A DNA stretch of 62,176 nucleotides, filler included, from Nitrospinae bacterium RIFCSPLOWO2_12_FULL_45_22 (GCA_001803565.1; 4 parts of 4 records of this genome joined end to end with filler, not necessarily neighbours in it), one strand, 5' to 3'; counted from the first letter of the whole stretch, positions 43,529 through 62,176 are shown. Numbers and translations: made by a program. The notes: generated by a model not told the origin, from the sequence alone.

Positions 43529-43628
43529 NNNNNNNNNNNNNNNNNNNNNNNNNNNNNNNNNNNNNNNNNNNNTTAATTAATTAANNNNNNNNNNNNNNNN
43601 NNNNNNNNNNNNNNNNNNNNNNNNNNNN
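43529..43628. other. Artificial contig linker
   Basis: 44N-TTAATTAATTAA-44N. Confidence 0.95.
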
Positions 43629-43630
43629 TT

Positions 43631-43771: not shown

Positions 43772-44685
43772 CCCAAGTTGCGTTTAACAAAAAGCTTTAT
43801 TCAATGTAAAACCAAATACGAACAAAATAACCTTAAGTAAGAAACCATCAAAAGTAACAGCATGAATCTTCTTGGGGAAAAAATTAGAAATTTCAGAAAA
43901 TATTGTCTCTATCCTCTTGCGAATATACTTTTTATACCACCGTATGGGAGGTTCATCCCAACGTTTGGAATTCTTCTTCCTCATTGGAGAGAGCTTGATT
44001 TTATCCATCTCCATAAGGTCATCTTCAATAGTGTAATCGGTGTAGACGGCATCTGCATATATTTCACTTCCCTCAGGAAGGTAGAAGGGTAACTCATATA
44101 GAGCCTTTGAATCGTGTGTGGCACCAGCAAAGAAGGTAATCTCAACAGGAATTCTATCAGAAGTAGCAAGGATATGGACTCGAACACCATAGAAATATCG
44201 TCTCTTGGAAGGTATATATCCTCTGTATTCTTCAGATTTGACGATGCGAGAGCGCTTTATGCGGATATTGTCACAAACAGGAACAGGAAAAGAATCCAAT
44301 ACATACTCCATAGAGATATTGGCTTGTTTGAAAACAATACCAAGCTGGTGGAAGATGCTTACAATGAGATCAGAGAGGGCATGGATTCTCCTGCAAAGAC
44401 GGGATTTTTCAAGCATATCGGGGATGAGACCAGTCTCATGCAGAACTACTCTGGCTCTCTCTATATTGCCTGCAAACACAATGGCAGATATCAATGCTGT
44501 TGTGATAACTTCCGAATCTGTCATCTTTTGTCTTCTTGATGTTTAATTGCTTTGAGAATATCATCAACTATAGTATAAATTATAATTGTTTTTTCTATCA
44601 TTTGTTCCTCCTATGATTAACTGTTTATAGTTTTCCATAGGAAGAACTATTTTATATTTAATTTATATTAATTAGCAACTTGGGT
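43771..44685 (-). mobile_element. IS982 family element
   Basis: Terminal IR ACCCAAGTTGC / GCAACTTGGGT; ~915 bp; no target duplication evident. Confidence 0.85.
43784..44601 (-). pseudogene. IS982 transposase, frameshifted near codon 26
   Basis: MIEKTIIIYTIVDDILK...HQEDKR* overlaps MTDSEVITTA in the -1 frame; LDSFPVPVC, YFYGVRVH, YAD, RKRIETIFS motifs. Confidence 0.75.
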
Positions 44686-44688
44686 TAG

Positions 44689-47600
44689 GAATATATAGAT
44701 GCCCCTTATCAGTCCCTTTTTGCTGAATCCTTATGGCAGGAGATAGTAGCCAATTCGGATATTGTCGCGGGCGGGGTAATGATGGCGTATAGTGATGAGT
44801 GGTGGAAGGGGAAGCATTCGGAGAAAGGGGGAGGTTGTCCCGATGCTGATCCTGCCTTTCATAGCCTCTGCGGGCATCCAGATGCATCACAGCCTGATAG
44901 ATATGCAAATGAGGAGTGGCGGGGTATCATGCGGTCCACCGATAATGGTCCTTACCCGGATATTATGGAGCCCAGGGCTATCTATTATGCCCTCCAGTCT
45001 CTCTGGACATCACCGCCTTTGCAGGAATCCCAATCTGACTTGTCATCCAGACCTTCTCAGAAAGCCATTGCTACCTGCCCATCAACCATTAGCTTCGGCG
45101 AGACAATCCAGTGTTCAATCGATGCCGCTGGTGAGGGAGATACCTACAGCTTCTCTGGTAGTACTGGTGATGTGGTAGTGGTGAGGATGCAGACGACATC
45201 AGGGGGTCTGGATCCCCAGATCAAGCTATACGACTCGGGTGGAAGTAAGCTCTATTCGGCATGGGGAAGCTACTATGCAGCGATAACAAACTGCACCCTA
45301 CCTGGTAGTGGTACTTATACCATTGTAGCAGATGATTACGGTGGTACTGATAGCGGAAATTATGAGTTAAGCTTGTCATATGTTGGGTTTCAGGTAAACT
45401 CGATTACGCCGAATAAAGGGGGGAATACTGGTGTTGTTACTACAACCATCACGGGGGCTAAGTTCGAATCAGGTGCCTCTGTCAAGCTAACCAGGGAAGG
45501 CAATCCTGATATTAATGCAGTAGAAGTAAATGTCACAGACTCATCCCATATAACTGCCAGCTTTGATCTGACCGGCAAGGCCTCCGGCACTTATGATGTC
45601 GTAGTCACCAATCCTGATGGCAAGTCAGCTACCTTACCCAAGGCATTTACCATCGAAGAAGGCGGCGAGGCGAAGCTGTGGGTAGATATCGTGGGAAGAG
45701 ATAGAGTAAGGGTGGGAAGGACCGAAGCATTCATTGTTCAATATGGAAACTCTGGTAATATTAATGCTGATTACCCATATTTGGTTATTGCACTACCAAT
45801 GGAGATTAAATATGAAATTTTGGGCAACTTCGCTTCGCTTCCTCCTGATAGTAGCTCTTCTAATTATACAACCACTGATCCAGAGGTATATCATTTGACC
45901 GTTTTGGGGGTTCCGGAGTTACCACCAGGCTCTACTCGCTCTATAAAACTGGAAGTTAATGCTCCTAAAATTGGAGAATGGAAAATAAATGCTTATATTA
46001 CGACGGATAGAAGTGTAATTTACTCTTCTGTGCTTTCTTTTGCAAAATCTGCTTTTGAAGAATTATTTATGGAATCAACAAATGCTAATTCCCAAAGTAC
46101 TCAAACAACCCTTTTTCAGAACGGACTTCTGGGAGATTGACCTGGCATGCGGCAAAGTCTTTAGGAGATGGTGATTTCATAGAAATAATGCCTGACAGTT
46201 CCGATTCTGATCCAGACATAAACATAAAAAACTTGAAGGATAATCCGTATCCTGGTTGGACATATTGGGGAGCCTATCGTTTACCCCGAACTCTTAGCAA
46301 AGAAGAATTGCAAAGGCGAGTTGATAATCTCCGTAAAAGGTATGGCATAGATCCGGGAGATCCTAACAACATAAGTAAATACACCAGCATATGGTGTACA
46401 TATAAGTTTGAAAAGGATAAAGCGCTATCCACTTATTGTTGGGGATTGGTCTTTCTACTTAATTTTGACATAATTTATAGGGATAAAAAATGGGTAAGTG
46501 AAGCTGAACTCTATTAGCAGGAACCATGAGTGTTTTAAGAAATTTGGTAGTGGTATGGAAAAAGTTTTTTCTAGTGTTGCAGCTATCGACCCTAATGATA
46601 AGGAAAGCCTTGTTGGTTTCGACTTTGCAGGTACGCCTCAAGGTCAGCTGAAACATTTTGTAAGTAATGGTCAGTCGATAGGCTATATGGTCTTTTTTGA
46701 AAACCTCGAGACCGCCACTGCTGCAGCACAGGAAGTGCTCATCACTGACCAACTTGATCTTAACCTCGATTGGTCAACCTTCTCATTTGGTGATATGCAG
46801 ATTGGTGAAAAGATAATTAACGTGCCGGAGGGGGACAATAACTTTCAGAGCACGGTTGATCTGAGGCCGGATATCTCTGCACTTGTTGAGGTTAATTGCA
46901 ACCTAAAGTTAGCAACCGGAGCATTTGAATGTCTTTTCCGGGGCAAAGATCCTGATACTGGAGAACTGGCTGACTTCCTTCCACCAAATACAGATGCTGT
47001 TGACCCACGAGGAAGAGGCTGGATTTCATTCAGTATAATGCCAAAAACCGGCCTCCCGACCGGGACAGTTATTAAGAATAAGGCAACAATAGATTTTGAA
47101 GTCGGCATACCACCGGACCCCATGGATACACCAGAGGTCTTCAATACCATTGATTCAGATACACCAACAAGCGGTGTTTTACCCCTATCATCTGCGTATA
47201 CTACCACTGATTTCAAGGTTAGCTGGTCTGGAAGCGATGGAGAATCAGGCAGTGGATTAAGGGATTATACCATTTATGTATCCGATAATGGCGGCGATTA
47301 CACTCCCTGGCTTACTAATACCACGGCTACCTCGGCGGAATTTATCGGTCAATTCGGACATACTTACCGATTCTACAGCATAGCCAGGGATAATGTCGGT
47401 AACGAAGAGGACCCACCCCAGCAGCCTGATACCCAGGTGAGCATTAATGCCTCTGATAAGCTCATTGCGGTCTACACCAACAGATCCTCTTATACCACTG
47501 GAGACAATTTGAAGCTATTGGTCAGCCTCAATAATCCGGGTAAGGCCATTGTAGCCGATGCCTTCCTGGGCTTTATGTTACCAGATGGGAGCCTCTACTT

Positions 47601-47856
47601 TTTCGATAGCTCTCTTTCCAACCTGATCCCAGCACAAACTAATTATCCGAGAACCTTTACTGCTGCCCGCACCTCTCTGGACATCCCGGGGAGCTTCAGT
47701 TTACCACCAACCGAGGTCTTCTCGGTACGGCTTCCAGAACTGGCAGAAGGTGACTACATTGCCTTTGCGGCCCTAGCAGAGCCAGGCTCGGTGCAGGCAG
47801 GTTCACCCAGAATAATCGGAGAAGTTAGCCTGGCCTATATCACATTTAGTAAGTAA
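44689..47856 (+). pseudogene. Large multidomain secreted protein, 5' truncated and split into three ORFs: GH-A TIM-barrel tail, PPC domain, IPT/TIG, variable domain, DPND domain, Fn3-like, AEPGS domain
   Basis: GG.MMAYSDEWWK..NEEW.GI..PRAIYYAL; DPQIKLYD..LPGSGTYTI; ITPNKGGNTG; AIDPNDK..FEN..TAAAQEV.ITDQLD; VSWSGSD..YRFYSIARDNVGNEE; ORFs 44779-46140, 46137-46517, 46498-47856. Confidence 0.7.
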
Positions 47857-48169
47857 ATTCGCGGTAGGATTATTAAAGCGGTCTCTATTTCTTTGGGCTG
47901 GGGCTTGTTGGTTTTTAGTGAAAATTCAGCACAAAGGACAAATGCTTCAATGGGTGGTAAAGGCTATTAGGTTAGTGCCTTGTTCTTAACGAGCAATAAC
48001 CCAATTAACTAATGAAAGGGGGGAAAAATGGTTAAGAAATTTTTAATTTTCAACTTTAAGAGTGGCCGTCCCGGCAGATACAGAATGATTGAGGTTGATA
48101 GCCAAAGGCTTCGACCTTCTCAAGCACTCGTAACGTTATCTGCTCAGCGCGGGCAAAAAGGAGGAGGTT

Positions 48170-49435
48170 ATGGCGCGGAAAATCTTTTTTATTCTTTTAT
48201 TTGCTCTTCTGGTCCTAATCCCCCAGAGGGGATATGTGGAGTCATCTTTACCAGAAATAAAGATTTTTACAAATGGTCCCAGCTTCCGTTCCGGGGATAC
48301 CCTGTCCCTTGCTGTGAGTCTGAGGAATCCCGGGGCGGAAATGGCAGTGGATGTCTACCTGGGTTTTATCTTACCCAATGGAGCCATCTACTTCTTCGAT
48401 GAAACCCTCAAGAATCTAGTGCCAGGTGATATTAGGGATCATGCTACCTTTACTGCGGTTGGGAATGATGTTACTCTCCCCTCAGGATTCGATTTGCAAC
48501 TTCCGGGGTTCTTCTCACTCAAATTACCCATCATTCCTGATGGCACTTATGCTGTTTTTGCTTTCCTAGCTGAACCCGGTTCTGCCCAATCAGGATCTAT
48601 TCAGGTTATCGGAGGGGTCAGCCTGGTATCTTTTAGCTATACCTCGGCACAGGGCGCAATTGAGATTATAAATGAATATCCTATCGGTACAATCTCAAAT
48701 AGGCGACCAACCATTTCTGCAACTGTTAGATCTAGTTACAACTCTGAGATTGACCTCTCTACTATCCGAATGACTCTGGATGGCTCCCTTGTTTCTCATA
48801 ATGTAAGCGGAGCCGGTTCAAATGTACAGTTATCCTATACCCCAAGTTATGACTTAGCTGAGGGAGAGCACAGGGTATCTGTAAACGCTAAAGATGTGAA
48901 TGGTGTAGCAGCTAAGGAGAAGGCCTGGCGGTTTGAAATATCTGTAGCTAATCCAGAATGTGTGAATATTTCTGGACTATGGAATTGGTCTGAAACCGTG
49001 ACTGTGACATGTACAGCCGAAGGAGAGAGCGAGACGGAAACTATAAGCGGTTCAGGGGTAATAAATATTAATCAAAAAGGTTGCAATGTGAATTGGACAG
49101 CTTCTTCCTTTAATGTTGATAGAACTGGAACAATTCAGGGTAATAACATTCAGGTATCAGGCCAATTTGTCATCCCGCTCGAGGAAGACGTTAATATTAC
49201 GCAGAATATCTTTACTGCAAAAGGTAATATTAGCGGAAATCAGTTCAATCTGAATGGTTCAGGAATAGCAACAGGCACATATGAGGATATAAGTTTTTCC
49301 TGCACAGGGACTTCTACTGCTGTATTTACCCGGGCAAATACTTCATCATTGTCTAGCGAAAAGGAGGTTATCAGGGAACCTTCGTTACTATTTTTTAATA
49401 ATGCGATAAAAATAGTTACAACTGTGGCCCCTTAA
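48170..49435 (+). CDS. Secreted protein: N-terminal AEPGS domain, Ig-like domain, beta-rich C-domain
   Basis: GGAGG SD, signal peptide, FLAEPGSAQSGS, RPTISAT..IDLSTIRMTLDG..LAEGEHRVSV. Confidence 0.75.
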   Translation: MARKIFFILLFALLVLIPQRGYVESSLPEIKIFTNGPSFRSGDTLSLAVSLRNPGAEMAVDVYLGFILPNGAIYFFDETLKNLVPGDIRDHATFTAVGNDVTLPSGFDLQLPGFFSLKLPIIPDGTYAVFAFLAEPGSAQSGSIQVIGGVSLVSFSYTSAQGAIEIINEYPIGTISNRRPTISATVRSSYNSEIDLSTIRMTLDGSLVSHNVSGAGSNVQLSYTPSYDLAEGEHRVSVNAKDVNGVAAKEKAWRFEISVANPECVNISGLWNWSETVTVTCTAEGESETETISGSGVININQKGCNVNWTASSFNVDRTGTIQGNNIQVSGQFVIPLEEDVNITQNIFTAKGNISGNQFNLNGSGIATGTYEDISFSCTGTSTAVFTRANTSSLSSEKEVIREPSLLFFNNAIKIVTTVAP

Positions 49436-49927
49436 AATAATAAGTTATGTTTTCAGGAGCTAGAATTGGTCCAAAGCTAAAGCCCTTGCCAATGCTTTTA
49501 GGCCCCCGTCATAGTAACGGCAAAGTTGGGTTGAATATAGGTAGAAGGGGACCCAGGATATACTGAGAGAAAATGATTGGGTATAAGGAAATTGTGGAGA
49601 TGGATGAGAAAGAGGGCAAAAGGGAGATATATTTTAGAGAAAAGGCAATAGAAGTCCCGTATCCCCGGCTGATAGGGGGTAGGTTTTTACTTAAGATCCT
49701 TTTACATTGGGTAAAAAGCTAGATTTTTGTAGTGGTCACATCTAAGCGACAATTAAAATAAAAAGGGGCTAAAACCTTAGAAAGAAAAGGTCTTTCTATT
49801 GGTTAAAAAATGGTATATTATCGTATTTTAATAGTTACCACCTAAGGTTTTGGACTATTTTCCCTTAACTATTGGTGAGGCATTACAATTTCTATGAAAT
49901 AGTTATGACAATAATTTCGCATTACCC

Positions 49928-50572
49928 ATGGTCCAACTATCACTAACTATATTGAAAAGACTATTGCTGAACATCTTTTCGGTCATACTTATCACGGGCA
50001 TAGGTCCATTCCTGTCTTTTAGTTATATTACTCACGGTGCCCAACCTATATCAGATAAGATCCTTGTAGACAATTTTGAAAAACCGGGAAAACACAATTC
50101 TCTGGGGCATGATTTCGGCGCATTTTCTGACCAAAAAAACCTTGGTCACTGCTATTTATTTTTCAGCCAAGATAAGCAAAAAGAGTCATTGAATGAAAGC
50201 AAATACTCATTGTATATTCAATGGGATACTGCTAAAGAAGGTTCATATGGGGGCTATTGGAGTGATCTCAGACATCTTAATTTGGAATCTTTTAATTATC
50301 TATCTTTTTATGTTAAGGGTGTAAAAGGTGGCGAAAAGTTTAAGGTTGGTTTAAGAGGAAAGGTAGACGCAACTTATGAAACAAAAATACTTATTAATGA
50401 AGCATTAAAGGAAGGTGTCACAGTTGAATGGCAGAGAGCAACAATCCCTTTAAAATGGTTTAAGGCCATACAAAACTGGGGAGATGTAAATATGCTTTCT
50501 ATCAATTTCGAATATACTTTTGGTAGTGGAAGTGGTGCAATTTTAATTGACGATATCGTTTTTGAGAAATGA
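49928..50572 (+). CDS. Exported CBM11/CIA30-like carbohydrate-binding-domain protein
   Basis: LVDNFE, SYGGYW, LSFYVKG..GGE.F.VGL, WQRATIPLKWF, G.ILIDDIVFE. Confidence 0.7.
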   Translation: MVQLSLTILKRLLLNIFSVILITGIGPFLSFSYITHGAQPISDKILVDNFEKPGKHNSLGHDFGAFSDQKNLGHCYLFFSQDKQKESLNESKYSLYIQWDTAKEGSYGGYWSDLRHLNLESFNYLSFYVKGVKGGEKFKVGLRGKVDATYETKILINEALKEGVTVEWQRATIPLKWFKAIQNWGDVNMLSINFEYTFGSGSGAILIDDIVFEK

Positions 50573-50613
50573 ATCAATAACTTCCTCAACAAAATATATT
50601 CCCTTGTATTTTC

Positions 50614-52353
50614 TTGTATGTAATGGAGCAGGAAATTAGAAAAAATAATTTCATGTATGCTGGCATTATCTTTAGCTGGCTAATCTGTCTTGGGCATTTT
50701 AATCCCAAACTTTTCTCTGTCTTAGGCGGTTCTGAATCTCTAACTACCAAATCGGTTTATATCATTTTCATATTCTTTCTCAATTTCTTCTGGCTCTATG
50801 GAATTTTTCATCTCTTCTTTCTCCTTCCCAAGATTCTTTCATTTTCAAAAAAATACCCCGTAGCTGAGAATCCGGTTCATTCACCAAGCGTCGCCATCCT
50901 CTATACAACAAGAAACGATTTTCAGGAAAAGGCGGCATTGTCCTGCATTAACCAATCCTATTCCAATTTTCATGTTTATATATTAGATGACAGTACAGAT
51001 GATACCTATAAAGCAATTATCGACCAGTTTCATTATTCTCATCTTGCACAAACCACTATTATCAGGCGACGAGATCGGAGTGGCTTTAAAGCAGGGAACC
51101 TAAATAATGCCCTTCGGCACCATGCCATCCGGTATGAATACTTTGCTGTTATCGATGCCGATGAGGTTATCCCCTCGGATTTTTTGGAGAAACTCGTGCC
51201 TTATTTTAACCTTGAAAAAAACATTGCCTTTGTTCAGGCCCATCATGAGCAAAATCCTCATCAACCATCAAAATTCGCCCAGGATTTGGCACTGGGTATC
51301 AATTTTCACTGGGATGTCTATCAGCCGCCCAGAAATGACTATGGGTTTGTCATTTTTTACGGCCATGGAGCCCTAATTCGGCGTGATGTATGGGAAAAGG
51401 TTGGTGGATTTCCTGAAATTGTTTCGGAAGATTTAGCCTTTGCAACCCGGATAAGACAATTCGGCTATCGAGGGTACTTTGTCCGGGAAGTGACCTGCTA
51501 TGAAGATTTTCCTGAGACCTATCAGCAATTCAGAAAGCGGCATGAGAAGTGGGTCAAGGGGGCATGCGAATACCTGCATCATGAATTTCTGCCTTTTCTC
51601 CTATCAAAGCGTGTAACGTTGCCAGAGAAGCTAGACGTATTATTCTCCTCCTTCAGCCTGTTTATTCCAGCCGTCTTCCTGATTTATATTTTTATCGCCA
51701 ATGCGGTTCTTCCCATACTATTAGCAGAAAAACACACTCTTTCCATTAGTCTTTTTGGGCATAGTATCGAGTTGATGCCAGCCTATTTTATGGAACCGAG
51801 GTTTAAGAATTTATGGACCCTCGACTTTTACCTGATCACACTTATAGGCATGTTCTCACCTATCTTTTGCTATTTCGGGAAAATTTTTTCTCACCCCCAA
51901 AAGATTATCAAACTTCTATTCAAATCTGCTGTCCCATATATTTCTCTTATCCTTGTTTCTACCTGTGGTATTTTAACCTATCTTCTTACAAGAAAGGCTG
52001 TATTCCTTACCACTGGAGACAAAACAGCAAGTGGTTCCCTACTGTTACAAAATGGGAGGAGCGGCTTCTGGGAGAGTTTAAATTCAAACCATTCACTGGT
52101 TTTTCATCTAGAATGGGCATTGGGCTTGCTCCTAACCTATTTTTCGTTGATGACCATGAACTTCGCCCTTTTAACTGTCGCTTCCTGTCTGATTTTAAGT
52201 CCCCTCGTTGCTCATTATGGTTGGGAAAATAGAGCTATATCTTTTTTTATATCATTACCACTCCTTTTTGTCCTATTAGCTTTTGGGAGTATGGGCATCG
52301 GTTTTTTAGGAATTCAGGGGCTTTCGTTGTTTTTTCTTGCTTTGCATTTTTAG
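50614..52353 (+). CDS. Processive membrane GT2 glycosyltransferase (cellulose/beta-glucan synthase-like)
   Basis: LDDS, GFKAGNLNNAL, VIDADE, VQA, GHGALIRR, GGF..VSEDL, RHEKW at the QxxRW position; N- and C-terminal TMs. Confidence 0.85.
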   Translation: MYVMEQEIRKNNFMYAGIIFSWLICLGHFNPKLFSVLGGSESLTTKSVYIIFIFFLNFFWLYGIFHLFFLLPKILSFSKKYPVAENPVHSPSVAILYTTRNDFQEKAALSCINQSYSNFHVYILDDSTDDTYKAIIDQFHYSHLAQTTIIRRRDRSGFKAGNLNNALRHHAIRYEYFAVIDADEVIPSDFLEKLVPYFNLEKNIAFVQAHHEQNPHQPSKFAQDLALGINFHWDVYQPPRNDYGFVIFYGHGALIRRDVWEKVGGFPEIVSEDLAFATRIRQFGYRGYFVREVTCYEDFPETYQQFRKRHEKWVKGACEYLHHEFLPFLLSKRVTLPEKLDVLFSSFSLFIPAVFLIYIFIANAVLPILLAEKHTLSISLFGHSIELMPAYFMEPRFKNLWTLDFYLITLIGMFSPIFCYFGKIFSHPQKIIKLLFKSAVPYISLILVSTCGILTYLLTRKAVFLTTGDKTASGSLLLQNGRSGFWESLNSNHSLVFHLEWALGLLLTYFSLMTMNFALLTVASCLILSPLVAHYGWENRAISFFISLPLLFVLLAFGSMGIGFLGIQGLSLFFLALHF

Positions 52354-52365
52354 GGGGAATTACCA

Positions 52366-55300
52366 ATGAAAAGAAAAATTTTTATTGTAGCCATGAGTAT
52401 TTTTCTGATATTGCTTCCAGTATACGGATATGCCCTTATGGGTGATGCTGATGGCAATGGAACGGTAAATCTGGATGATGCACAGACTATTGCCCGATAT
52501 CTCGTAAACCAGATCTCTGCTATTCCTAACCCAACTGATGCTGATGCCACGCAAGATGGCAAGATAGACATGGAAGATGCCTTTGCCATCGCCCAAAAGG
52601 TTACGGGCCACACCCGGTTTGTGGTGGTTGCCCCTCGCTATGGACGTTCTGATAAGCTACAGATCGGGGATACGATTCGCATTGAAGTTTTTGAGAAATT
52701 TTTTCCTTTCAATATTACCGGTGGCACAGTCCGTATTCGTTCCGCGAATTCGGACTACGATTCTGGCGATCAACCATTGACCTTTGAGCGGAATGGCCGT
52801 TCGCTATACTATCATTGGGATACAGGTGGTCTAACAGCCGCATCAGACTATGAAATCACCGTAACCCTAAGCGACAGCGCTGGCCGTGCACTTTCTAGCA
52901 GCGAACCATCGGCCAGATCAACACAGGACGCACCTCTACGCTCCAGCGCAATTCCTTTCATCCAAGTCTGGCTAAGGCTAACCAACCGAGTTTTCGAACC
53001 ACCCTTTGTTGCGGCATCTGTAGATGCCTATGCCCCTGCGGCAGGGATTCCGCTGGAGTTCCGGCGGGTGGTACCGCATGACTCTGCGCACTATCCGTAC
53101 CTGGGCCCGTTGGGCAGGGGGTGGGTCCACAAGTACGATATCAGCCTGGAGGAGTATACGGATGGGCGCACCGCGTTCCACGGCCCCGAGGGGTTCAACC
53201 GTTTCTTTCAAAGCAATCCGGATGGTACCTATACGGCCTCACCGGGGGATTATGGCCTTCTGACTCGCGATCCTGATGGAACGTTTCAACTCAAAGAGAA
53301 AAACGGATTTATGTATCGTTTCCGTTCAGATTTGCGCCTCGATTACGAAGAAGACTTGAACGGTAACCGCATCAGCGCGATTTACGATGGTTCGAACCGG
53401 CTTGTGGAGATCCGTCACTCCTCCGGGCAATCCTTCTTCCTGGAATACAATGCCTCCGGGCGAATCACACGGCTCACCGACCATGCCGGTCGGGTAACGA
53501 CCTACGAATATGATGCCACGAACATCATGCTGAAAAAAGTTACTGACCCTGCCGGAGGCGCAACCAACTATGCATACAGCGTTGGACAGAGCGATATCAT
53601 GAACTACCGGTTGTTGTCGGTGGCCTTTCCCGACGGCGCCCACGTTCATTATGAATACGACTCCAATGCCCGTCTGATCCGCCAGACCGGCACCTGGGGC
53701 GCTAACCCCGTTACTTATAGCTACACTATAGGCGGTAATTTGCAGGGTACATACACGCGAATTACCGATGCCCTGGGCGGGTCACCGACCATCTATGTGA
53801 ACGACAGAGTACAACCCACCCTGGTGAAGGCCCCGGATGGGGCTCAGACCTCGAACCAATACGATGCATCAGCAAATCTCATCAAAATAACTGATCCATT
53901 GGCTCACGCTACGCAATTCGCCTATGATGAATTCGGCAATGTAGTTCGGGTCACCAATCCTTTGGGTAAAACCGTTCAATTCGGTTATGACCTTCGATTC
54001 AACAAACCTTCCTGGATAACCAGCCCGCTGGGTAACACCACCTCGCTCGCTTATGATTCCAAAGGGAATCTGATCACCATGACCTATCCCGATTCAACCC
54101 AGGAAACCTACGCCTACGATCCCCAGGGGAACCTGATCTCCGTACAAGAGGGTGCTGGCAAGCTAACCCAATATTCCTACAATAGCCAGGGCCAGATGAC
54201 ATCTTTCCAGAACGCCCTCGCCAATATCACGCAGTTCTCCTACAACCCAGCCGGAGATCTCGATAGCGTGACCGATGCCAAAGGGCATGTAATCTCCCAC
54301 GGGCGCGACGTATTGGGGCGATTGATACGGCGTACCTACCCGGACGGCCCACAGGAAGATTACGAATATGATGCCGCGGGTAAGGTAACCGGATTTACTA
54401 ATCGGCGGGGCGAAAGGATCTCGTTTTCCTATGATGCCACCGGACGGATGGAATGGAAAAGATATCCCTCCGGAAAGAAACTGCACTTCCTATACGATTC
54501 CGCTGGATATCTTGCAAGAGTGGAAGAGGTGGGGGGGGAAGCGACGACTCTCGATACAGCTTATGAACGTGACGCTACGCACCGCATAACCAAAGTGAAG
54601 GTACCGGGAAAAGTTACACCAGAGTCTTATGACGTATCCTATACCTACGACGCCGCAGGGAATCAGAAATTTATGGCCTACCCGGACGGTTATGCCTTGA
54701 ACTATGAGTATGACGCAGCAAACCGACTTAAAAGGATTTATGATGCGGGCAATAATACCATCGTGACTTATGACTATGATGCTGCAGGCCGCCGGACAAA
54801 GAGAACCCTTGGTAATGGGACCTATACAACATACGATTACGACACTCTGGACCGGCTAACAACGCTGGCCAATTACGCGCCGGGTGGAACAATCCAATCC
54901 CGGTTCACTTACACATATAATGCAGCAGGCATCCGCACCTCCATGACCACCCTCGAAGGGGCACACACCTATACCTACGACGATACCTATCAACTGACTG
55001 GCGTCAGGTATCCCGACGGCAGGGCGGTTAACTATGCCTTTGATGAAGTTGGTAACCGGACCAGCGTGGCAGACAATGGCGTGGTAACTGACTATACGAC
55101 CAACGAACTGGACCAGTATACGCAGGTTGGCACGGAGACATATGGGTACGATACAAACGGGAACCTCAAGACCAGAACTTCAGGAAGCAACGTAACTTCG
55201 TATGGATGGGATGAGGATGATCGCCTCGTAAGGGTTGATCGCGGCGGAGTTCATATCGATTATCGATACGATTATCAGGGTCGTCTTGTATCCAAGACAA

Positions 55301-58300
55301 TCGGAGGTCAGGAGACGCGTTATATTTGGGATGGGGTTGATCTGATTGCAGAAATGAATTCCACAGGTCAGGTGATCAAACGTTACATATACGGAGCAAC
55401 AATTAATGAGATTATTCTTGTGTCGGCAAATGGCACGAACTACTGGGCACAGCAAGATGGATTAGGAAGCGTTGTCGGTGTGTCTAATGATACGGGCGTT
55501 TTAACTGCATCAAACTCATATGATGTCTATGGCAATGTCCGAAGCGGTAACATTGCTTCTGTTCCTCAGCATTTTGCCGGAATGCGGTGGGATGAGGATG
55601 CGGGGTTATATTATGTTAGGGCGAGATGGTATGAGAAAAGTCTTGGTAGATTTATATCGATAGATCCAATAAAAGATATCAATTATAGTCTGAATCCTTA
55701 TTCCTATGTCGGCAATCAACCTTTGTCATTAAGAGATCCTTTAGGTCTATGGTGGGGAGGAGAAGTGTTAGATTGGATTGGTGATAATTGGGGGCTTAAC
55801 TGGTTTGGGGAACACAGAAGCGGCGGGAAAATAACTCCAAAAGGGGGTATAGGAGATTGGAATGTACTCCCATCAAATTGGGTTGACTGGCATGCAAAAT
55901 GGCATGATTTGAGTCGTTACAACGCTGAACATGGGACAGGATTTTGGGGCTCACGTTGGGGGGGGACTGGCCGTCTTATGGATGAGATGGGCGCTGATGC
56001 AACGGTAATCGCTGGAATTCTTAGTGAAGCATTGCTTCGTTCAATCTTTGGAGTTTTTTTTGATGCATTTGATCCACGATTGTATGGACCTTATTTGGGA
56101 GGTATGTGCCCTACTTTTGTTCAAAGCGGCAATGCTCACGAAGAAAAGTCTTACAACTCAAATGATACATTAATAGCAAGGATAAAGGTTCCTTGGCCTG
56201 ATTCTCTCCTCCGCTCCGATATCCCCATTTATGGAATTGCATCTGGCAAAAACTTCTCTCGTTACCGCGTAGAATATGGGAAAGGATCAAATCCTACTGA
56301 GTGGCATCTCATTGCAGAATCTGATAAACCGCAGGAAAGTGCCCCTGACTTCAAAGACATCTCATGGATGCAGGGTGACCTTAACTTAAAGGGGAATCTT
56401 GCGACGTGGAATACAGGGTTGAAGAACTGGATTCACCTGCCTTGGCATGCACCTGAAGACGAAACAGACTTTAACGGGGTCTACACTATTCGTCTGACCG
56501 TATTCGGGAAAGACAGCACGAAGGTTGAGGATAGAGTAACCGGAGAGGTAGGACGTGCAATTGCCCAGGCTCTTACTGGCATTGCTATCAGTCCTGACAA
56601 AAAAGTCGTAATGCGTTTTCCTGAGCAGGCATTGACGCATCCTTTCCGAGTTTACACAATACTTCCTTTCTCGGAGATTGGTGAAGAAACACCCACTTTA
56701 TGCAAGGGTTGTGAAATTATCGGTCATGTGTACAGAGTTCGTGAACCTGGTGACAGGTTTATCAAGGATGTTTCTCTTGAGTTTAGTGTTAATGCGGGAG
56801 AAATAAAGAAACGGAAGGCTGAAAACATCGGCATCGGGCGTTATGATACCGAGAAAAATAAATGGGTCTTGCTTGAAACAGTATATGACAGTAAGTCATC
56901 TGTATTCAAGACTAACCTTCAAGAATTACCCTCACCTAAAGCTATCTATGCATTGATACACCATCAAACTGAGAAATTGTCCCATAAAGCCTTAGCTCCA
57001 AAAGAGCAGATTGCGACTTTGAAACCTGTCCGTCCCGGGGTTCTTCTGGAAAACAACTTTGAAAATGATCTCGGAACTTTCAAAAACCGTGACCGCCTGG
57101 TTGGCGCTGTTCTTTCACGTGATAATGCAGCAACTCCTGACGGCTCTTACTGCCTGAAAATTACCAATGAAAACCATAGCGGCAACTTCTCCTCTTCCGT
57201 AATTGATCGACCCTTTGATGTTCGTGAGTACGGAACCATGACCTTTGATTATCGCATCGGTCCCGAGGTAAAGATAGATTTCTTCCTTAAGGTGAATGGG
57301 CGCTGGTACGATTTGCAATTTACGGGAAAGCCAGTTGATTTTAAGAACCGCGATGTCAATATTGCCAATCTGGGTGCCATTCAAGGCATTATTGCCGATG
57401 ATAAATGGCATACCGTAAGCGTTGATTTGCGCTACCTCCTGCACCAACAGACCCGCTATACCCGGATTGATGAGATTATCATGGCCAATTGGGACGTGGG
57501 GGGCTATATGAAGTTGGAGTTTGCCAATAATCCGCGCAGTGCGACATATTATATCGATAACTTTAAACTCACTGGTCCTGGTAAGGTAGCTAACGATCCA
57601 CCTCTCTTGCTGGTGGATGATTTCAATGAAGCTAAAAGCAGGAATAGGCTCGGAGGGGTATCCGGAACCTACTTCACCCCTGGCTCCAACTTTTTCGATG
57701 CCTCCTTGAGTGACGGTTCGACCTCCCCTATACGACCGGTTGCACCGAGGGATAATAAAAGTAGAGCACTGCTCTTAAATTTTGACACCACAAGGCCTGA
57801 TTCATACGGGGGCTATTGGACTTCAATCGCCAGGAATGACTTATCAACTTACTCGACGCTTGCCTTCCGCATGCGCTCAGATGGAGAAATTCCTAACCTA
57901 ACTGTCGGCATTCGCAACAGCCATGGCATCGAAGGTAAAACCTCTATCCGACCCTATGTTTCGACGCCCGGCACTGATGGCTGGAGAGAAGTTCAGATAC
58001 CCCTCACTGGGCTAAGAGGTCTATCTGATTTTTCATCGCCCGAGGTCCTGTTTTTTTCCGTGACACATAAAGATAGGAGTAGCAAGGGTAGGCTATGGAT
58101 TGATGACCTGCGATTCGAAAGCAAGCCCTATCCCCAGGTAGCCGATTTTGAAGCACCCTTTGACTGGACACTGCTTGGCGCTAATTACACAACGTGGCAG
58201 ACCGGGGCTGCTACTGTCTCATCCGGTAGTCTGAAAGATATTACGCAAGAGAAAAATCAGGAAAATACCGTCTTGCGTATTTCTTATGGGGGGACGATTG

Positions 58301-58638
58301 GGCTCGATTATGGGTTAAATGGTGGGTTCTCCTATGCTTCCTGGCGGGCCGGTTTGAACGGTATGGATGCCAGGCAGTTCAATTATCTGATTATGCGTAT
58401 ACGTGGAGAACGGGGAGGTGAGACACCTAATATATACCTTAGTGATTCGGTTAAACGTATCTCTCTTCGAGCGAAGGAAATGCCAATAATTAACCGGGAA
58501 TGGCAGACCATTAAACTGCCTCTGGCGCATTATGTCAAGCAGGGTATTGATATGAGCCATCTTGAATCGCTGGAAATTGTCTTTGAGTGGGCCGAGCAAT
58601 CCGGCACTATCTATGTGGATGATATAAGATTTGAGTGA
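52366..58638 (+). CDS. 2090-aa secreted RHS/YD protein with N-terminal dockerin and C-terminal CBM-like modules
   Basis: Signal peptide; GDADGNGTVNLDDA...DATQDGKIDMEDA dockerin; many YD repeats; RHS core GLYYVRARWY..GRFISIDP..PLSLRDPLG; three C-terminal (E/D)xFE/N...(I/V)D(N/D) jelly-roll modules. Confidence 0.88.
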   Translation: MKRKIFIVAMSIFLILLPVYGYALMGDADGNGTVNLDDAQTIARYLVNQISAIPNPTDADATQDGKIDMEDAFAIAQKVTGHTRFVVVAPRYGRSDKLQIGDTIRIEVFEKFFPFNITGGTVRIRSANSDYDSGDQPLTFERNGRSLYYHWDTGGLTAASDYEITVTLSDSAGRALSSSEPSARSTQDAPLRSSAIPFIQVWLRLTNRVFEPPFVAASVDAYAPAAGIPLEFRRVVPHDSAHYPYLGPLGRGWVHKYDISLEEYTDGRTAFHGPEGFNRFFQSNPDGTYTASPGDYGLLTRDPDGTFQLKEKNGFMYRFRSDLRLDYEEDLNGNRISAIYDGSNRLVEIRHSSGQSFFLEYNASGRITRLTDHAGRVTTYEYDATNIMLKKVTDPAGGATNYAYSVGQSDIMNYRLLSVAFPDGAHVHYEYDSNARLIRQTGTWGANPVTYSYTIGGNLQGTYTRITDALGGSPTIYVNDRVQPTLVKAPDGAQTSNQYDASANLIKITDPLAHATQFAYDEFGNVVRVTNPLGKTVQFGYDLRFNKPSWITSPLGNTTSLAYDSKGNLITMTYPDSTQETYAYDPQGNLISVQEGAGKLTQYSYNSQGQMTSFQNALANITQFSYNPAGDLDSVTDAKGHVISHGRDVLGRLIRRTYPDGPQEDYEYDAAGKVTGFTNRRGERISFSYDATGRMEWKRYPSGKKLHFLYDSAGYLARVEEVGGEATTLDTAYERDATHRITKVKVPGKVTPESYDVSYTYDAAGNQKFMAYPDGYALNYEYDAANRLKRIYDAGNNTIVTYDYDAAGRRTKRTLGNGTYTTYDYDTLDRLTTLANYAPGGTIQSRFTYTYNAAGIRTSMTTLEGAHTYTYDDTYQLTGVRYPDGRAVNYAFDEVGNRTSVADNGVVTDYTTNELDQYTQVGTETYGYDTNGNLKTRTSGSNVTSYGWDEDDRLVRVDRGGVHIDYRYDYQGRLVSKTIGGQETRYIWDGVDLIAEMNSTGQVIKRYIYGATINEIILVSANGTNYWAQQDGLGSVVGVSNDTGVLTASNSYDVYGNVRSGNIASVPQHFAGMRWDEDAGLYYVRARWYEKSLGRFISIDPIKDINYSLNPYSYVGNQPLSLRDPLGLWWGGEVLDWIGDNWGLNWFGEHRSGGKITPKGGIGDWNVLPSNWVDWHAKWHDLSRYNAEHGTGFWGSRWGGTGRLMDEMGADATVIAGILSEALLRSIFGVFFDAFDPRLYGPYLGGMCPTFVQSGNAHEEKSYNSNDTLIARIKVPWPDSLLRSDIPIYGIASGKNFSRYRVEYGKGSNPTEWHLIAESDKPQESAPDFKDISWMQGDLNLKGNLATWNTGLKNWIHLPWHAPEDETDFNGVYTIRLTVFGKDSTKVEDRVTGEVGRAIAQALTGIAISPDKKVVMRFPEQALTHPFRVYTILPFSEIGEETPTLCKGCEIIGHVYRVREPGDRFIKDVSLEFSVNAGEIKKRKAENIGIGRYDTEKNKWVLLETVYDSKSSVFKTNLQELPSPKAIYALIHHQTEKLSHKALAPKEQIATLKPVRPGVLLENNFENDLGTFKNRDRLVGAVLSRDNAATPDGSYCLKITNENHSGNFSSSVIDRPFDVREYGTMTFDYRIGPEVKIDFFLKVNGRWYDLQFTGKPVDFKNRDVNIANLGAIQGIIADDKWHTVSVDLRYLLHQQTRYTRIDEIIMANWDVGGYMKLEFANNPRSATYYIDNFKLTGPGKVANDPPLLLVDDFNEAKSRNRLGGVSGTYFTPGSNFFDASLSDGSTSPIRPVAPRDNKSRALLLNFDTTRPDSYGGYWTSIARNDLSTYSTLAFRMRSDGEIPNLTVGIRNSHGIEGKTSIRPYVSTPGTDGWREVQIPLTGLRGLSDFSSPEVLFFSVTHKDRSSKGRLWIDDLRFESKPYPQVADFEAPFDWTLLGANYTTWQTGAATVSSGSLKDITQEKNQENTVLRISYGGTIGLDYGLNGGFSYASWRAGLNGMDARQFNYLIMRIRGERGGETPNIYLSDSVKRISLRAKEMPIINREWQTIKLPLAHYVKQGIDMSHLESLEIVFEWAEQSGTIYVDDIRFE

Positions 58639-58704
58639 TACCAAGAATAAGGAACCTAATGAGCTTCTTTCAAGTCTTTCGAAGAACTAAATCATTTAAG
58701 GAGT

Positions 58705-59637
58705 ATGACCATGCAAAAATTCCAGTGCATTATATCCATAGCTGTAATGATATTACTTGTTATCCCTATTTCTTTCATCAGTGGAAGGGTGGAAGCCGGT
58801 TCTTCATGGATGGCCATAAGCAGCCCTGTGCCAACTCCTCAGAGTGGTGGGGTTTTTGAAACAAAGCTGAAGTTTTTTACCTGGGATGCGGTGATAGGTT
58901 CTTATTTTATCTCGGTACATTACGACCCAGCGATTCTACAGATTATTCAAGTAACTACGCCAGACCAATCACCATTTTATGGCAATACCTTTGCCGATAA
59001 AAATTCTTTTACAACTGGTACAACTGACATCAGCGCTTTTCAAACGGGTACTACATCCGAGCAAGCCAATCCCGAGATCTTTGCGACGATCCAATGGAAA
59101 GCCCTGGGTAACACTGGGACATCTGCTACTATTGAACTTGAGCCAAAAAGCATAGTTGATTCTTTTTGGCGACCGATTGAGACTAATAGCGCAAGGACTA
59201 CTTTTGTGATAGGTGATACTCCCAGCTATGTGCCTACCATTATTATCATTGGCAACGCGAATAAATATTCTCCAGAAGACACCCTGGTCCTTTCGGTTAT
59301 TATTGATAACCCCGCTCCTTATACCCAGGTGGTGGATGTCTTTCTGGGTATCATAATCCCAAATGGCTCAGCCTATTTCTTTGACTCTTCTCTCACCAAC
59401 CTGATACCATCCAGTTTGGATGATCCTGGGACCTTTACGCCAGTAAGAAATTCCCTGAAACTTGATCCGGGATACAATCTTCCCGCCACTGCTTTCTTTT
59501 CTGTGACATTACCTACAGGCTTACCGGAGGGTATTTATAAAGCCTTTGCTGCCTTTGCCGAACCTGGCTCGGTCCAGGCCGGTTCCACCAGGATTGTAGG
59601 AGACATTAGTATTATTTCGTTTTACTATTCCCCATAG
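58705..59637 (+). CDS. Secreted cohesin-like domain + C-terminal AEPGS domain
   Basis: Signal peptide; G.F....IGSY.ISVHYDPAILQI..V...FATIQWKA.G cohesin pattern; FAAFAEPGSVQAGS. Confidence 0.7.
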   Translation: MTMQKFQCIISIAVMILLVIPISFISGRVEAGSSWMAISSPVPTPQSGGVFETKLKFFTWDAVIGSYFISVHYDPAILQIIQVTTPDQSPFYGNTFADKNSFTTGTTDISAFQTGTTSEQANPEIFATIQWKALGNTGTSATIELEPKSIVDSFWRPIETNSARTTFVIGDTPSYVPTIIIIGNANKYSPEDTLVLSVIIDNPAPYTQVVDVFLGIIIPNGSAYFFDSSLTNLIPSSLDDPGTFTPVRNSLKLDPGYNLPATAFFSVTLPTGLPEGIYKAFAAFAEPGSVQAGSTRIVGDISIISFYYSP

Positions 59638-59732
59638 TGGGAGTTTAAAAAAGCCTGGAGGAATTATTAAAGTCCGGGAATGCATCGAGCAGTTTTCGAG
59701 CTACGAGGGAAAAGAATATACCGGAGGCAACC

Positions 59733-61608
59733 ATGACGGCATTAAAATATCAACCGAAGGGGCTGCAAAAAAAGAGTTTGATGCATCTCAGTTTAATTGG
59801 GGGATGGGTTTGTATTGTAGTCTGGTTCAATCCCCGTTTCTTGCTGTTATTTTCCGAAGCATACTCTATACCGGCAAAGATGTCTTTAATCCTAATGATT
59901 ATTTGCCTCAATATATTCTGGCTCTTTGGAACTTATTTCATCATGCTGTTTGTTTTTGCCTTATTTTCCAAAAGGCGACTATCTCCACCTCCCTTGAAAC
60001 CAACGGAACAGCCAAAGGTCGCTATTCTTTATATGACCAGAAATGATTTTCAGTATGAGGCGGCTCTTTCCTGCCTAAATCAAAAGTACCAAAATTATCA
60101 GCTCTTCATTCTGGATGATAGCACAGAACCGGACAGGATGGAGGAAATAGATAAATTTAAAGAAAAGTTCCCGGAAAAAGTGACTGTGATCCGAAGAAAA
60201 GATCGGAAAGGATTTAAAGCCGGTAGTATAAATAATGCCTTGAGAAATTATGTCCATGATTTCCCTTTTTTCGCCATTATAGACTCTGACGGGGTTATCC
60301 CAGAAGATTTTTTAGCGAGGATGATACCTTATTTTGGATTGGATGAGAGCATCGCTTTTGTCCAGGGAAGCCACCGACCCAAACCATTCCAAAAGTCCAA
60401 ATTTGCATCTGATTTGATTCTCGGGATCATTCCCCTCTGGACAGTCTACTTTTATCCCAGAAACGATTATGGATTTCTTATATTTCTAGGGCATGGAGGC
60501 ATAATAAGACGGGATGTTTGGGAGATAATAGGGGGATTTCCTGAGCTCGTCTCTGAGGATCTAGCCTTTTCTACCAAAGTCGCAGAGTTTGGATATCGGG
60601 GCTATTTTGTTAGCGATGTTATAAGTTATGAGGATTTTCCGGAATCTTACCCGCAGCTTAGGAAGCAACAAGAAAAATATGTGAAGGGAGGTTGTGAATT
60701 CCTTCATAGGAGTTTTTCTTCGTTTTTGCGATCAAAAAAGGTAACCTGGTTTGAGAAGCTGGATGTGTTCCTCTCTTGCTCCACCCTTTTTCTCCCCGCC
60801 TTTTACCTCTTTTTTCTTTTGATATTTTGTTTATTCTGCATATCCGCTTCACTCTCGTAAAGGTCTTCTACCCACAGGATTTAGTGTATGAATATTTCTA
60901 GAAACACCGTATGTAGATACAAGGGGAGTCAACAGGATATGCATATTGTTTATTACTACCCCATTTCTTTGCTGAAGTAAAGCCTATCACTTTTCCTTAG
61001 GCTCTCAGATCAAAATTGCTTCTGCCTACTTCCTAAACAAACGTTTTTACTCTATCTGGAGTTGGGATTTTTATCTGGTAACTCTTTTGATGATGTTTGC
61101 CCCTGTGCTTGGCTGCTTCCACCTTATATTATCCCATCCGATAAAGGTAATTCGGCTCCTTTTCCTATCCACGGTTCCGTATCTTTCCCTGATGGTGGTA
61201 TGCGTTACGGGGGTCTTGAGCTATATTTTAACGGGAAAGGCTGCATTCTTAGTTACGGGTGAAAAGGGCGGAGGGGATACTTTTTATAATTACGCTGAGG
61301 GTAGTGGAGGAAAAACGTCTTGGTTAGAGAGGTTAAATTTTGAACATGGCTCAGTCCGGATCACTGAGCTGATTTTGGGAGTATTTCTTACTTATATATG
61401 CCTCAGAACCTTTAACTTAGCGCTTTTGGCATTTTCTCTATCTTTGGTACTCGGTTATTTTCTCTTTATTTGTGAATGGGAAAATAAAATACTTACCCCT
61501 TTAGTATATCTCCCTTTTTTGTTGATCGTTTTCGGGATAGGATTGTTGGGCTTTAACCTCATGGGGGCCCAGGGGATATTTTTATTATTCTTTCCTATTC
61601 ATTTCTGA
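59733..61608 (+). pseudogene. Second GT2 glycan synthase paralog, disrupted by a MITE and a frameshift
   Basis: Same motifs as 50614..52353 (GFKAGSINNAL, IDSDG, VSEDL); homology continues in 60997-61608. Confidence 0.8.
60836..60945. mobile_element. 110-bp MITE with 9-bp target duplication
   Basis: IR TGCATATCC / GGATATGCA; direct repeat TTGTTTATT at 60827-60835 and 60946-60954. Confidence 0.75.
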
Positions 61609-62007
61609 GTATTTTATCCCTCTCTCAAAGCGTTAACCCCAAACGGGCAATATGTGCCAAATTGTAATGTATAAGCCTTTGTGGATAAAATTAAAAAAAT
61701 CGATTTTGCAGATATCAACAGGGGGCAATAATTATAGTACAATCGTTGCCCATTGGTAATGTGGAGGATTTGGTATGAAGGAGGAAAAGGGTATAAAAAG
61801 AAGCCCAATATTTTAAGTCAAAGTGTTAATTGGGAAATGAAGGATGCCTTTTTTTTGACCTAATATAAGTTACAATACCTTAATAATCTGATAGGTTGTT
61901 TGGATTGTCGTTAGTGGGATGCGAAAGAAGTTTTTATGGAGTGGCAAAGCTTGCTATGCAGAATTTTTTCAGTGGTAATTAATTATCTGATTGATGGGGG
62001 TTAGAAA

Positions 62008-62176
62008 ATGGATAGCAGGTATTTTACGGTGGAGCATGAGGCATTTCGCAAGACAGTACGGGATTTTGTTGAGAAAGAGCTGGTACCCCATATAGACGAA
62101 TGGGAGGAAAAAGAAGAGATGCCCCGGGAGATATTCCCCCGTATGGGACAGTTAGGCTTTTTCGGTTTGCGCTTCC
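62008..62176 (+). CDS. Acyl-CoA dehydrogenase, 5' part (runs off the window)
   Basis: MDSRYFTVEHEAFRKTVRDFVEKELVPHIDEWEE...MGQLGFFG. Confidence 0.8.
   Translation, partial: MDSRYFTVEHEAFRKTVRDFVEKELVPHIDEWEEKEEMPREIFPRMGQLGFFGLRF

Follow-up and report, generated by a model that had tools for sequence, protein, structure and literature searches.

A candidate mobile envelope module in which a dockerin-bearing RHS protein accompanies a GT2 glycan synthase and a cohesin protein

Introduction

An RHS protein is near-reflexively taken for a carrier of toxins, and a cohesin-dockerin pair for part of the machinery that degrades cellulose. What, then, would be the role of an RHS protein that carries a dockerin near its N-terminus and modules resembling carbohydrate-binding modules (CBMs) at its C-terminus, and whose gene stands between those of a glycan synthase and a cohesin protein? 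Such a locus is found in Nitrospinae bacterium RIFCSPLOWO2_12_FULL_45_22 (GCA_001803565.1), a metagenome-assembled genome (MAG) of 321 contigs and 85% completeness, within the 62,176-nucleotide stretch of DNA that was analysed as a whole (the window). Its five genes encode a stand-alone CBM-like protein, a GT2 synthase, a giant dockerin-RHS-CBM protein, a cohesin protein and a second, broken GT2 (Table 1). An earlier note on this DNA had proposed that cohesin and dockerin tether the RHS protein to the cell surface, with the cohesin gene standing where an RHS immunity gene would be expected.

We have compared this locus with 59 related ones. The tethering idea gains comparative support from synteny, from the anchors of related cohesin proteins and from the co-presence of dockerin and cohesin; the toxin-immunity framing that came with it is given up. 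In the reading that we prefer, and to which we would give about an even chance, an RHS/CBM protein anchored through a cohesin would hold the glycan made by the cell's own synthase, and the three genes would form a horizontally spread envelope module. The family, which comes from soil, sediment, groundwater and gut bacteria, breaks both habits of thought, its RHS shell being linked with a glycan synthase and, for most members, with a cohesin anchor as well.

Results

The RHS gene recurs with a GT2 synthase and a cohesin gene

Searches with the N-terminal 300 residues of the RHS protein returned 70 clusters and searches with its C-terminal 966 residues returned 83 (E <= 0.001), and both led to the same set of proteins. 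Members of this family are about 1900-2250 amino acids long and form at least 70 full-length clusters, and their source annotation says at most 'RHS repeat-associated'. We collected 59 related loci besides the present contig, 16 from species-representative genomes (found with a profile of the tail) and 43 from metagenome contigs, and scanned them with purpose-built profiles for the dockerin, the cohesin subfamily and the GT2. The labels of the 16 genome loci include Desulfobacterium, Verrucomicrobiota, Sedimentisphaerales, Pseudomonadota, Opitutales, Nitrospirota, Bryobacterales, Armatimonadetes, Acidobacteriaceae, Thermodesulfobacteriota, Clostridia, Christensenellaceae and one Bathyarchaeia bin; by label, their phyla include Planctomycetota, Acidobacteriota, Armatimonadota and Bacillota, and the family as a whole spans more than 10 phyla.

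A GT2 gene is present in 51 of the 59 loci, among them all of the 21 whose flanks both reach 3 kb or more; each of the eight without it runs into a contig end on one flank or both. A cohesin gene of the subfamily is present in 29 of the 59, directly after the RHS gene in 12 and after the GT2 gene in 17, which does not fit the 'immunity position' that the earlier note had assigned to it. The homolog of the stand-alone CBM-like protein stands upstream of the GT2 in five loci (L013, L030, L031, L041 and L047), and all-against-all clustering of the neighbours in the 59 loci revealed no other widely recurrent neighbour. Conserved synteny, whose absence would have counted against the earlier note, is therefore what we find, and it extends across phyla.

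A tree of the tail is out of step with taxonomy, the nearest relatives of the protein in the window lying in bins labelled Nitrospirota and Desulfobacterium. Further, in an Acidobacteriaceae-labelled locus (L024) the module, with its RHS gene split, has a TrwC relaxase on one side and a phage-type integrase on the other (2997-5762 and 16043-17260). From this tree and these neighbours the module appears to move horizontally. A DDE transposase gene at the start of the contig that carries our locus (window 43784-44524, minus strand) also fits.

A giant RHS protein with an N-terminal dockerin

All five genes listed in the earlier note are present on the plus strand at the coordinates given there, as open reading frames (ORFs) with Pfam or NCBIfam matches. 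The scans returned dockerin, cohesin, RHS core, CBM30 and GT2, with dockerin and cohesin above their Pfam cut-offs. The genes are closely spaced, with intergenic gaps of 41, 12, 66 and 95 nt. Their positions and those of their domains are collected in Table 1.

Table 1. Features of the locus, in window coordinates, and of an ORF recurring in some related loci (last line, coordinates of the loci named).
Feature	Position	Strand	Evidence
Stand-alone CBM-like protein, exported or membrane-anchored, 214 aa	49928..50572	+	Pfam CBM30, BLASTP to RHS tail
GT2 membrane glycan synthase, 579 aa, intact copy	50614..52353	+	Pfam Glyco_trans_2_3
Exported dockerin-RHS-CBM protein, 2090 aa	52366..58638	+	Pfam, NCBIfam
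Type I dockerin, residues 26-78, two Ca-binding loops	52441..52599	+	Pfam Dockerin_1
RHS plug (DUF6531), YD-repeat shell and Rhs-associated core to DPLGL, residues 215-1128	53008..55749	+	Pfam, TIGR03696
Hypervariable segment, residues 1129-1244, Trp/Gly-rich, one hydrophobic stretch	55750..56097	+	Identity to relatives
Conserved all-beta C-terminal array, residues 1245-2090	56098..58635	+	AlphaFold2, Foldseek, Pfam CBM30
Exported cohesin protein, 310 aa	58705..59637	+	Pfam Cohesin, model
Cohesin domain, residues 28-175	58786-59229	+	Pfam, AlphaFold2
Lineage-specific C-terminal domain of the cohesin protein, residues 176-310	59230-59634	+	Recurrence in MAG
Second GT2, broken (ORFs 59733-60860 and 61087-61608)	59733..61608	+	tblastn with first GT2
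ORF of about 230 aa, related loci	L057 11577-12320; L059 4832-5515; L063 10969-11640; L066 2494-3177		Neighbour clustering

The 2090-residue protein begins with a Sec-type signal, followed by the dockerin, an Ig-like stretch, a DUF6531 plug, YD repeats and the Rhs-associated core. Dockerin_1 (PF00404) matches residues 26-78 with 26.8 bits (cut-off 22.9). The duplicated calcium-binding loops reported in the earlier note are visible in the sequence and are invariant or nearly so in 38 family members, G26, D27, D38, D60, D64 and D71 being invariant in all of them, and the profile of the family matches solved cellulosomal dockerins (E 8.7e-7 and weaker). No PAAR domain is among the Pfam matches of this protein (T6SS, or type VI secretion system, genes of the MAG were not searched), and the N-terminus carries the Sec signal and the dockerin instead.

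The shell scores 237.5 bits with RHS_repeat and 28.8 bits with DUF6531, and the Rhs-associated core (TIGR03696) scores 71.1 bits at residues 1052-1128 (cut-off 32.5). The core contains the motifs RARWY at 1085, SIDP at 1098 and DPLGL at 1124, which hold the Arg and the two Asp of the RHS autoprotease as described for a bacterial teneurin-like protein in excerpts of PMC13018210; at least 90% of 38 relatives retain these residues of the catalytic motif. The profile of the family matches solved Rhs and teneurin-like shells (9pt5, E 1e-80; 9ifo, E 2e-68). By its YD repeats, its core ending in DPxGL and its protease residues, the protein is, at the level of sequence, an RHS/YD-shell protein. On contig C111 (4983-7388 and 8625-10781) the MAG has a second RHS-repeat region, 31% identical to this one, near an ORF that ends in the same C-terminal domain as the cohesin protein.

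The tail is conserved and CBM-like, and only an internal segment varies

About 960 residues follow the Rhs core. In an AlphaFold2 model of this tail (predicted template-modelling score, pTM, 0.71; mean predicted local distance difference test score, pLDDT, 76.3; 25-row alignment) the first 125 residues are disordered and an all-beta array follows, with CBM-like modules at residues ~1555-1740, 1748-1918 and 1925-2090. As a single domain, Foldseek matched the model to a CBM11 bound to a mixed-linkage beta-glucan fragment (template-modelling score, TM, 0.69; root-mean-square deviation, rmsd, 3.5 A) and, over several domains, to tandem CBM22, SGBP-B, reelin repeats and the C-terminal domains of Cry/Vip3; no enzyme or toxin fold was among the matches. 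Pfam CBM30 scores 38.5 bits on the C-terminus of the RHS protein and 31.5 bits on the 214-residue protein (cut-off 27), and a CIA30 match, at 23.2 bits, lies under its cut-off of 24. By profile together with the predicted beta-jelly-roll fold, these modules are CBM11/CBM30/CIA30-like. The kinship between the stand-alone protein, which has a hydrophobic N-terminus, and the C-terminal modules of the RHS protein, noticed earlier by eye, is confirmed by BLASTP (E 8e-12 with residues 1748-1918 and 5e-9 with residues 1892-2090).

Most of the 83 relatives share this tail, queried as residues 1125-2090, at 35-69% identity over 87-100%. Set into it is a hypervariable segment, 56-173 residues long in the relatives and bounded by DPxGL and a conserved GGxCPTF (in a few rows lengths above 230 reflect a misplaced GGxCPTF motif). 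Median identity to 72 relatives is 17% in the segment, 41% in the 100 residues before it and 56% in the 300 residues after it, and its pLDDT is ~22-33. Close relatives carry unrelated segments and the same types of segment recur in different proteins; many are Gly-rich, Pro-rich, hydrophobic or glycine-zipper-like. Excerpts of PMC13018210 give a cavity of about 44,000 cubic angstroms for the shell of a teneurin-like protein and state that it limits cargo size. Since the cavity is that small, the CBM array would lie outside the shell and only the hypervariable segment could fit inside.

With its last ~845 residues conserved and only an internal segment variable, the RHS protein does not have a variable toxin as its extreme C-terminus and is therefore not a classical polymorphic toxin. 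A Pfam scan of the 2090-residue protein and the precomputed Pfam lists of its relatives contain no toxin domain. Neither is there an immunity gene directly 3' of it: in the related loci the next gene is the exported cohesin protein or the GT2, and outside one dockerin-less clade the clustering of neighbours brought up no further small gene that recurs. It is on these grounds, the conserved C-terminus and the lack of an immunity-like gene, that the toxin-immunity framing of the earlier note falls.

The cohesin protein and its anchor slot

The 310-residue protein begins with a signal peptide, and Pfam Cohesin (PF00963) matches its residues 46-142 with 25.4 bits (cut-off 24.1). The AlphaFold2 model of the domain has a pLDDT of 90.8, and its best single-domain matches are solved, cellulosomal cohesins (TM 0.70-0.78, rmsd 2.9-3.6 A), so that the cohesin-like protein of the earlier note has the predicted nine-stranded jelly-roll fold of a cohesin. 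Searched for exhaustively with residues 28-175, the domain has 140 representative relatives, in nearly all of which it directly follows the signal peptide and is itself followed by varied C-terminal parts; Pfam Cohesin matches 24 of 54 aligned members of the subfamily at E <= 0.001. Within the MAG the subfamily profile matches this gene alone. A search for the cohesin protein in the genomes of 40 relatives gave one weak match, to the C-terminal domain only, in a collection from which close relatives are nearly absent. A complex prediction for the cohesin (residues 28-175, 54-row alignment) with the dockerin (residues 22-85, 38-row alignment) gave a score of 0.18 and a mark of 0.32, and counts neither way.

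Residues 176-310 of the cohesin protein form a beta-sandwich of about 135 residues. The earlier note had the protein end in an 'AEPGS domain'; a C-terminal domain is indeed there, and we redefine it as this ~135-residue domain, which is found at the extreme C-terminus of about 20 ORFs of the MAG, 190-1420 aa in length and coding for exported proteins. Copies lie upstream on the same contig, at the C-terminus of 46498-47856 and, as an N-terminal copy, in 48170-49435. The domain has no match in Pfam or NCBIfam, and the Atlas offers unnamed clusters only, together with exported enzymes of Acidobacteriota and Methylomirabilota whose ends resemble it. In where it occurs, it bears the marks of a sorting or anchoring domain peculiar to the lineage. 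In syntenic positions elsewhere, cohesin proteins end in three SLH repeats (L032, L038) or in a Por_Secre_tail sorting domain of the type IX secretion system (T9SS; L040), others bear TSP3 repeats, PKD, TIG or a beta-propeller, and CTERM-type sorting domains occur on wider members of the cohesin family.

Anchoring scaffoldins of cellulosomes, such as the cohesin and SLH proteins of Clostridium thermocellum, are built in this way, from a signal peptide, a cohesin and a surface-anchoring end, and their partners carry a type I-like dockerin with two calcium loops as the RHS protein does. A constant cohesin joined to a host-specific anchor is, by analogy, the logic of an anchoring scaffoldin, and in this MAG the anchor slot would be taken by the ~135-residue domain.

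Dockerin and cohesin are present or absent together in most of the loci judged

Of the 59 loci, 34 could be judged for both domains, the 5' end of the RHS gene (or a non-RHS N-terminus) being present and either a cohesin being found or at least 3 kb of sequence lying downstream; the contigs of the other 25 end too soon. Dockerin and cohesin are both present in 23 of the 34 and both absent in nine (seven RHS forms and two with a non-RHS N-terminus). A dockerin without a cohesin was seen in two, L024 and L027, the latter with a weak cohesin match only, and a cohesin without a dockerin in none. Several of these rows are near-duplicates, and relatives are not independent.

In part of the clade lacking both domains, an ORF of about 230 aa without a Pfam family lies between the RHS and the GT2 genes (Table 1), and may be an alternative partner. 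Two candidates for a hidden cohesin were rejected after hhalign comparison, the protein after the GT2 in L024 (probability 1%) and the ORF between RHS and GT2 in L057 (probability 0.2%). The family member in the bin labelled Bathyarchaeia, an archaeal label, is dockerin-less (L025).

The GT2 is a membrane synthase of unassigned product

The first GT2 matches Glyco_trans_2_3 with 79.7 bits, and membrane segments flank its catalytic domain on both sides. In NCBIfam it scores 75.7 bits with CelA, 58.1 with MdoH and 57 with PgaC, all far under the equivalog cut-offs. Its nearest solved relatives are BcsA cellulose synthases (E ~1e-12). A BcsA-type cellulose synthase is not indicated, with the CelA score standing against a cut-off of 699.1 bits and no PilZ domain among the Pfam matches. 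From its sequence we class it as a GT2 synthase of unassigned product. A large GGDEF-EAL-PAS protein comes after the module in two loci labelled Bacillota (L027 14322-17783, L028 14713-18210), which hints at control by cyclic-di-GMP, by analogy with other synthase-dependent polysaccharide systems.

The second GT2 of the earlier note is a paralog of the first, but a broken one whose two parts lie in different frames. The N-terminal part (59733-60860) is 51% identical to the first GT2 over 348 aa by tblastn and the C-terminal part 41% over 206 aa, with homology from ~61000; about 190 nt with stops in all frames separate the parts.

Discussion

How could these parts work together? We propose that the GT2 membrane synthase would polymerise a glycan and move it across the inner membrane. 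The giant Sec-exported protein would present first its dockerin, next the closed RHS/YD shell with a short hypervariable segment at the RHS cargo position, and then an external string of CBM-like modules, and the small exported protein, with its one cohesin, would be fixed in the envelope by its lineage-specific C-terminal module. The dockerin would plug the RHS protein into the cohesin in a calcium-dependent manner and the CBM array would hold the polymer from the neighbouring synthase, so that a layer or matrix of self-made glycan would be fastened to the cell, or one cell to another. Our comparison shows which domains are there, the fold of the cohesin, a conserved gene order, that dockerin and cohesin are present or absent jointly, which anchors stand on cohesin proteins elsewhere, and a tail that is conserved and not a toxin. 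That the pair would bind, that the array would bind a glycan, which glycan this would be and where in the envelope the assembly would sit are inferences. If it is right, this would be a new bacterial way of fastening a self-made polysaccharide to the cell or to its neighbours, and genes whose annotation stops at 'RHS repeat-associated core domain-containing protein' would gain a function.

Several observations weigh against this reading. On the tail tree, dockerin and cohesin each change state only four times, giving four independent pairs of which two or three go in the same direction and none in the opposite one (sign test, p 0.25-0.5). Because the state changes are so few the test cannot reach significance, and the co-occurrence, consistent in direction, is suggestive and statistically not decisive. 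L024 has a dockerin and no cohesin gene within 10 kb, and L027 has its weak match; the clade without dockerin and cohesin keeps the GT2 (L017, L048, L055, L057, L058, L060 and L063), and the cohesin tether is therefore not essential to the core pairing of RHS and GT2. The CBM assignment rests on weak Pfam scores plus fold. The MAG has BamA and LpxC and is therefore diderm, so that a Sec signal alone leads only as far as the periplasm; no route to the surface was identified in this 85%-complete genome, in which T9SS PorV was not found and PorU gave a tail match only. The true partner of the dockerin could also be another protein of the MAG, encoded on contig C186 (7518-11669, L011). Its 1383 residues comprise a NosD-like beta-helix, Ig, a cohesin-dockerin-cohesin arrangement and the same C-terminal domain; its two cohesins score higher (Pfam 72.6 bits) and belong to another subfamily. 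Finally, the proposal offers no reason for a closed RHS shell with intact autoproteolysis motifs and a hypervariable segment.

The diderm envelope and the visible Sec signals would suit a different role, in which the RHS-CBM protein is a periplasmic accessory of glycan synthesis or export, as BcsB is to BcsA, and the cohesin-dockerin pair merely positions the complex. BcsB carries carbohydrate-binding domains, the nearest solved relatives of our GT2 are BcsA synthases, and the pairing of GT2 with RHS is the most constant feature of the loci, persisting where dockerin and cohesin are missing. We nevertheless think this role rather unlikely, since the Pfam, NCBIfam and Foldseek results show no likeness to BcsB, BcsC, PgaA or PgaB, the SLH-bearing and T9SS-sorted cohesin partners point to the cell surface, and some loci with the module are labelled Clostridia or Christensenellaceae, groups that lack a diderm-type periplasm. 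In a role in toxin delivery or kin recognition, the variable segment would be an encapsulated payload freed by the RHS aspartyl protease and delivered once the shell had been docked, through the CBMs and the dockerin, either to a target or to the surface of the producer. The segment lies exactly at the RHS toxin position between conserved flanks, its exchange among close relatives and its recurrence across proteins are what cassette exchange predicts, many segments are hydrophobic or glycine-zipper-like, and the catalytic motif is preserved. Yet the gaps of 12 and 66 nt that separate the RHS gene from its neighbours here leave no immunity-like small gene after it, the recurrent neighbours are only the GT2, the cohesin gene and, in the dockerin-less clade, the ~230-residue ORF, toxin domains are missing from the Pfam results, and the many low-complexity Gly/Pro-rich segments would suit a fast-evolving linker. 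We know of no precedent for a mid-chain payload followed by 845 conserved residues, and consider a toxin or kin-recognition system improbable.

That the genes are unrelated neighbours or an artefact of MAG assembly is scarcely credible. The fragmented bin, the broken fifth gene and the transposase gene at the contig start could raise the suspicion, which the synteny counts refute: the same gene set is found in 59 other loci from many assemblies and phyla, and contigs from four other runs match stretches of the locus at 99% identity or more, the exception being one X2 contig in the 95-99% band.

Returning to the anchored, glycan-holding protein, we may compare it with described systems. The resemblance to the cellulosome ends with its cargo, which here is an RHS shell with CBM-like modules and not a glycoside hydrolase; there is a single cohesin and no array, the link is to a glycan synthase and not to degradation, and the hosts are diderm, non-cellulolytic environmental lineages. 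A multi-pass GT2 adjoining an exported protein with carbohydrate-binding-like modules recalls BcsA-BcsB (cellulose) and PgaCD (poly-N-acetylglucosamine), from which the locus differs in its far lower equivalog scores and in the lack of PilZ, BcsB, BcsC and PgaA/B. WapA of Bacillus subtilis, a wall-associated Sec-exported RHS toxin, is tethered by N-terminal wall-binding repeats, has a polymorphic tRNase toxin at its end and comes with an immunity gene. Our protein is likewise a Sec-exported RHS protein with an N-terminal binding module, which is a dockerin in this case, and it has no terminal toxin.

The bacterial teneurin-like proteins, described in excerpts of PMC13018210 as toxin carriers with cognate immunity genes, share a Sec- or surface-exposed YD shell and the RHS aspartyl-protease motif with our protein. 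As presented there, their variable C-terminal toxin lies wholly in the shell and an immunity gene follows, whereas here a conserved, CBM-like tail of ~845 residues is followed by the cohesin gene and the GT2; the main text of PMC13018210 contains no occurrence of dockerin, cohesin, CBM or glycosyltransferase. Dockerin and Rhs repeats on one secreted polypeptide are already on record for the unconventional cellulosomal scaffoldins ScaO/ScaP of Acetivibrio cellulolyticus and Clostridium alkalicellulosi (excerpts of PMC3413522 and PMC6780208), which unlike the present protein also bear a peptidase, galactose oxidase and their own cohesins; those excerpts describe neither a CBM tail nor a GT2 partner for them, nor a separate anchor gene with a single cohesin. 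Cohesin and dockerin further occur among RHS-type PT-TG architectures (PMC13483458, in part), and PMC10553843 (in part) discusses cohesin-dockerin adhesins outside the cellulosome in syntrophic sulfate reducers. The earlier note had recognised this architecture from no described system; this is too strong for the dockerin-Rhs combination and holds for the three-gene module, since the literature found, as far as its accessible parts go, and including bioRxiv 10.1101/2023.11.21.568195 (supplements aside), gives no description of a GT2, a dockerin-RHS-CBM protein and a single-cohesin anchor as a set. Within the library searched, no paper combines 'YD repeat' and 'dockerin'. The kinds of parts are known, YD-shell proteins and synthase-dependent glycan systems as well as cohesin-dockerin display; it is their combination that is new, and it is widespread.

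In the teneurins of metazoans the shell serves adhesion and domains lie outside it. By extension, and as a speculation that we hold to be unlikely, RHS/YD shells would have a second role in bacteria apart from toxins, and in this family the shell may be the hub of a mobile matrix-building module with a cohesin-dockerin plug, its own synthase and an external CBM array, and thus a counterpart of teneurin-type adhesion; the hypervariable segment inside the shell and the intact autoprotease would then serve as a latch or recognition element, specific to the strain, that governs when the tail is let go or which cells aggregate. Should our preferred, glycan-holding reading hold, it would provide a tractable bacterial example of a YD shell used for adhesion, with a bearing on the origin of teneurins.

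Contig context and minor observations

The earlier note had placed the five genes on one contig. This is correct for the locus, which lies entirely within contig C305 (window 43629-62176), and not for the window, in which four contigs of one MAG (C300, C303, C304 and C305) are concatenated via runs of N; such runs lie at 7716-7722, 23564-23663, 24424-24433, 36341-36440 and 43529-43628, and neighbourhoods are invalid across the joins. A scan of 49300-62176 for promoters and terminators gave 26 and 10 hits, as against 26.6 and 13.4 in shuffled sequence, and hence no excess of either and no operon boundary.

The ~190-nt break in the second GT2 was considered as a repeat or mobile element and rejected as such, its sequence being unique in the MAG. 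A contig of another run (X5, 60600-61061) crosses the break without difference. Near it (60806-61000), one contig (X4) stops at 60806 and another (X3) diverges into unlike sequence at 60829; from these contig ends, the population may hold another form at this site.

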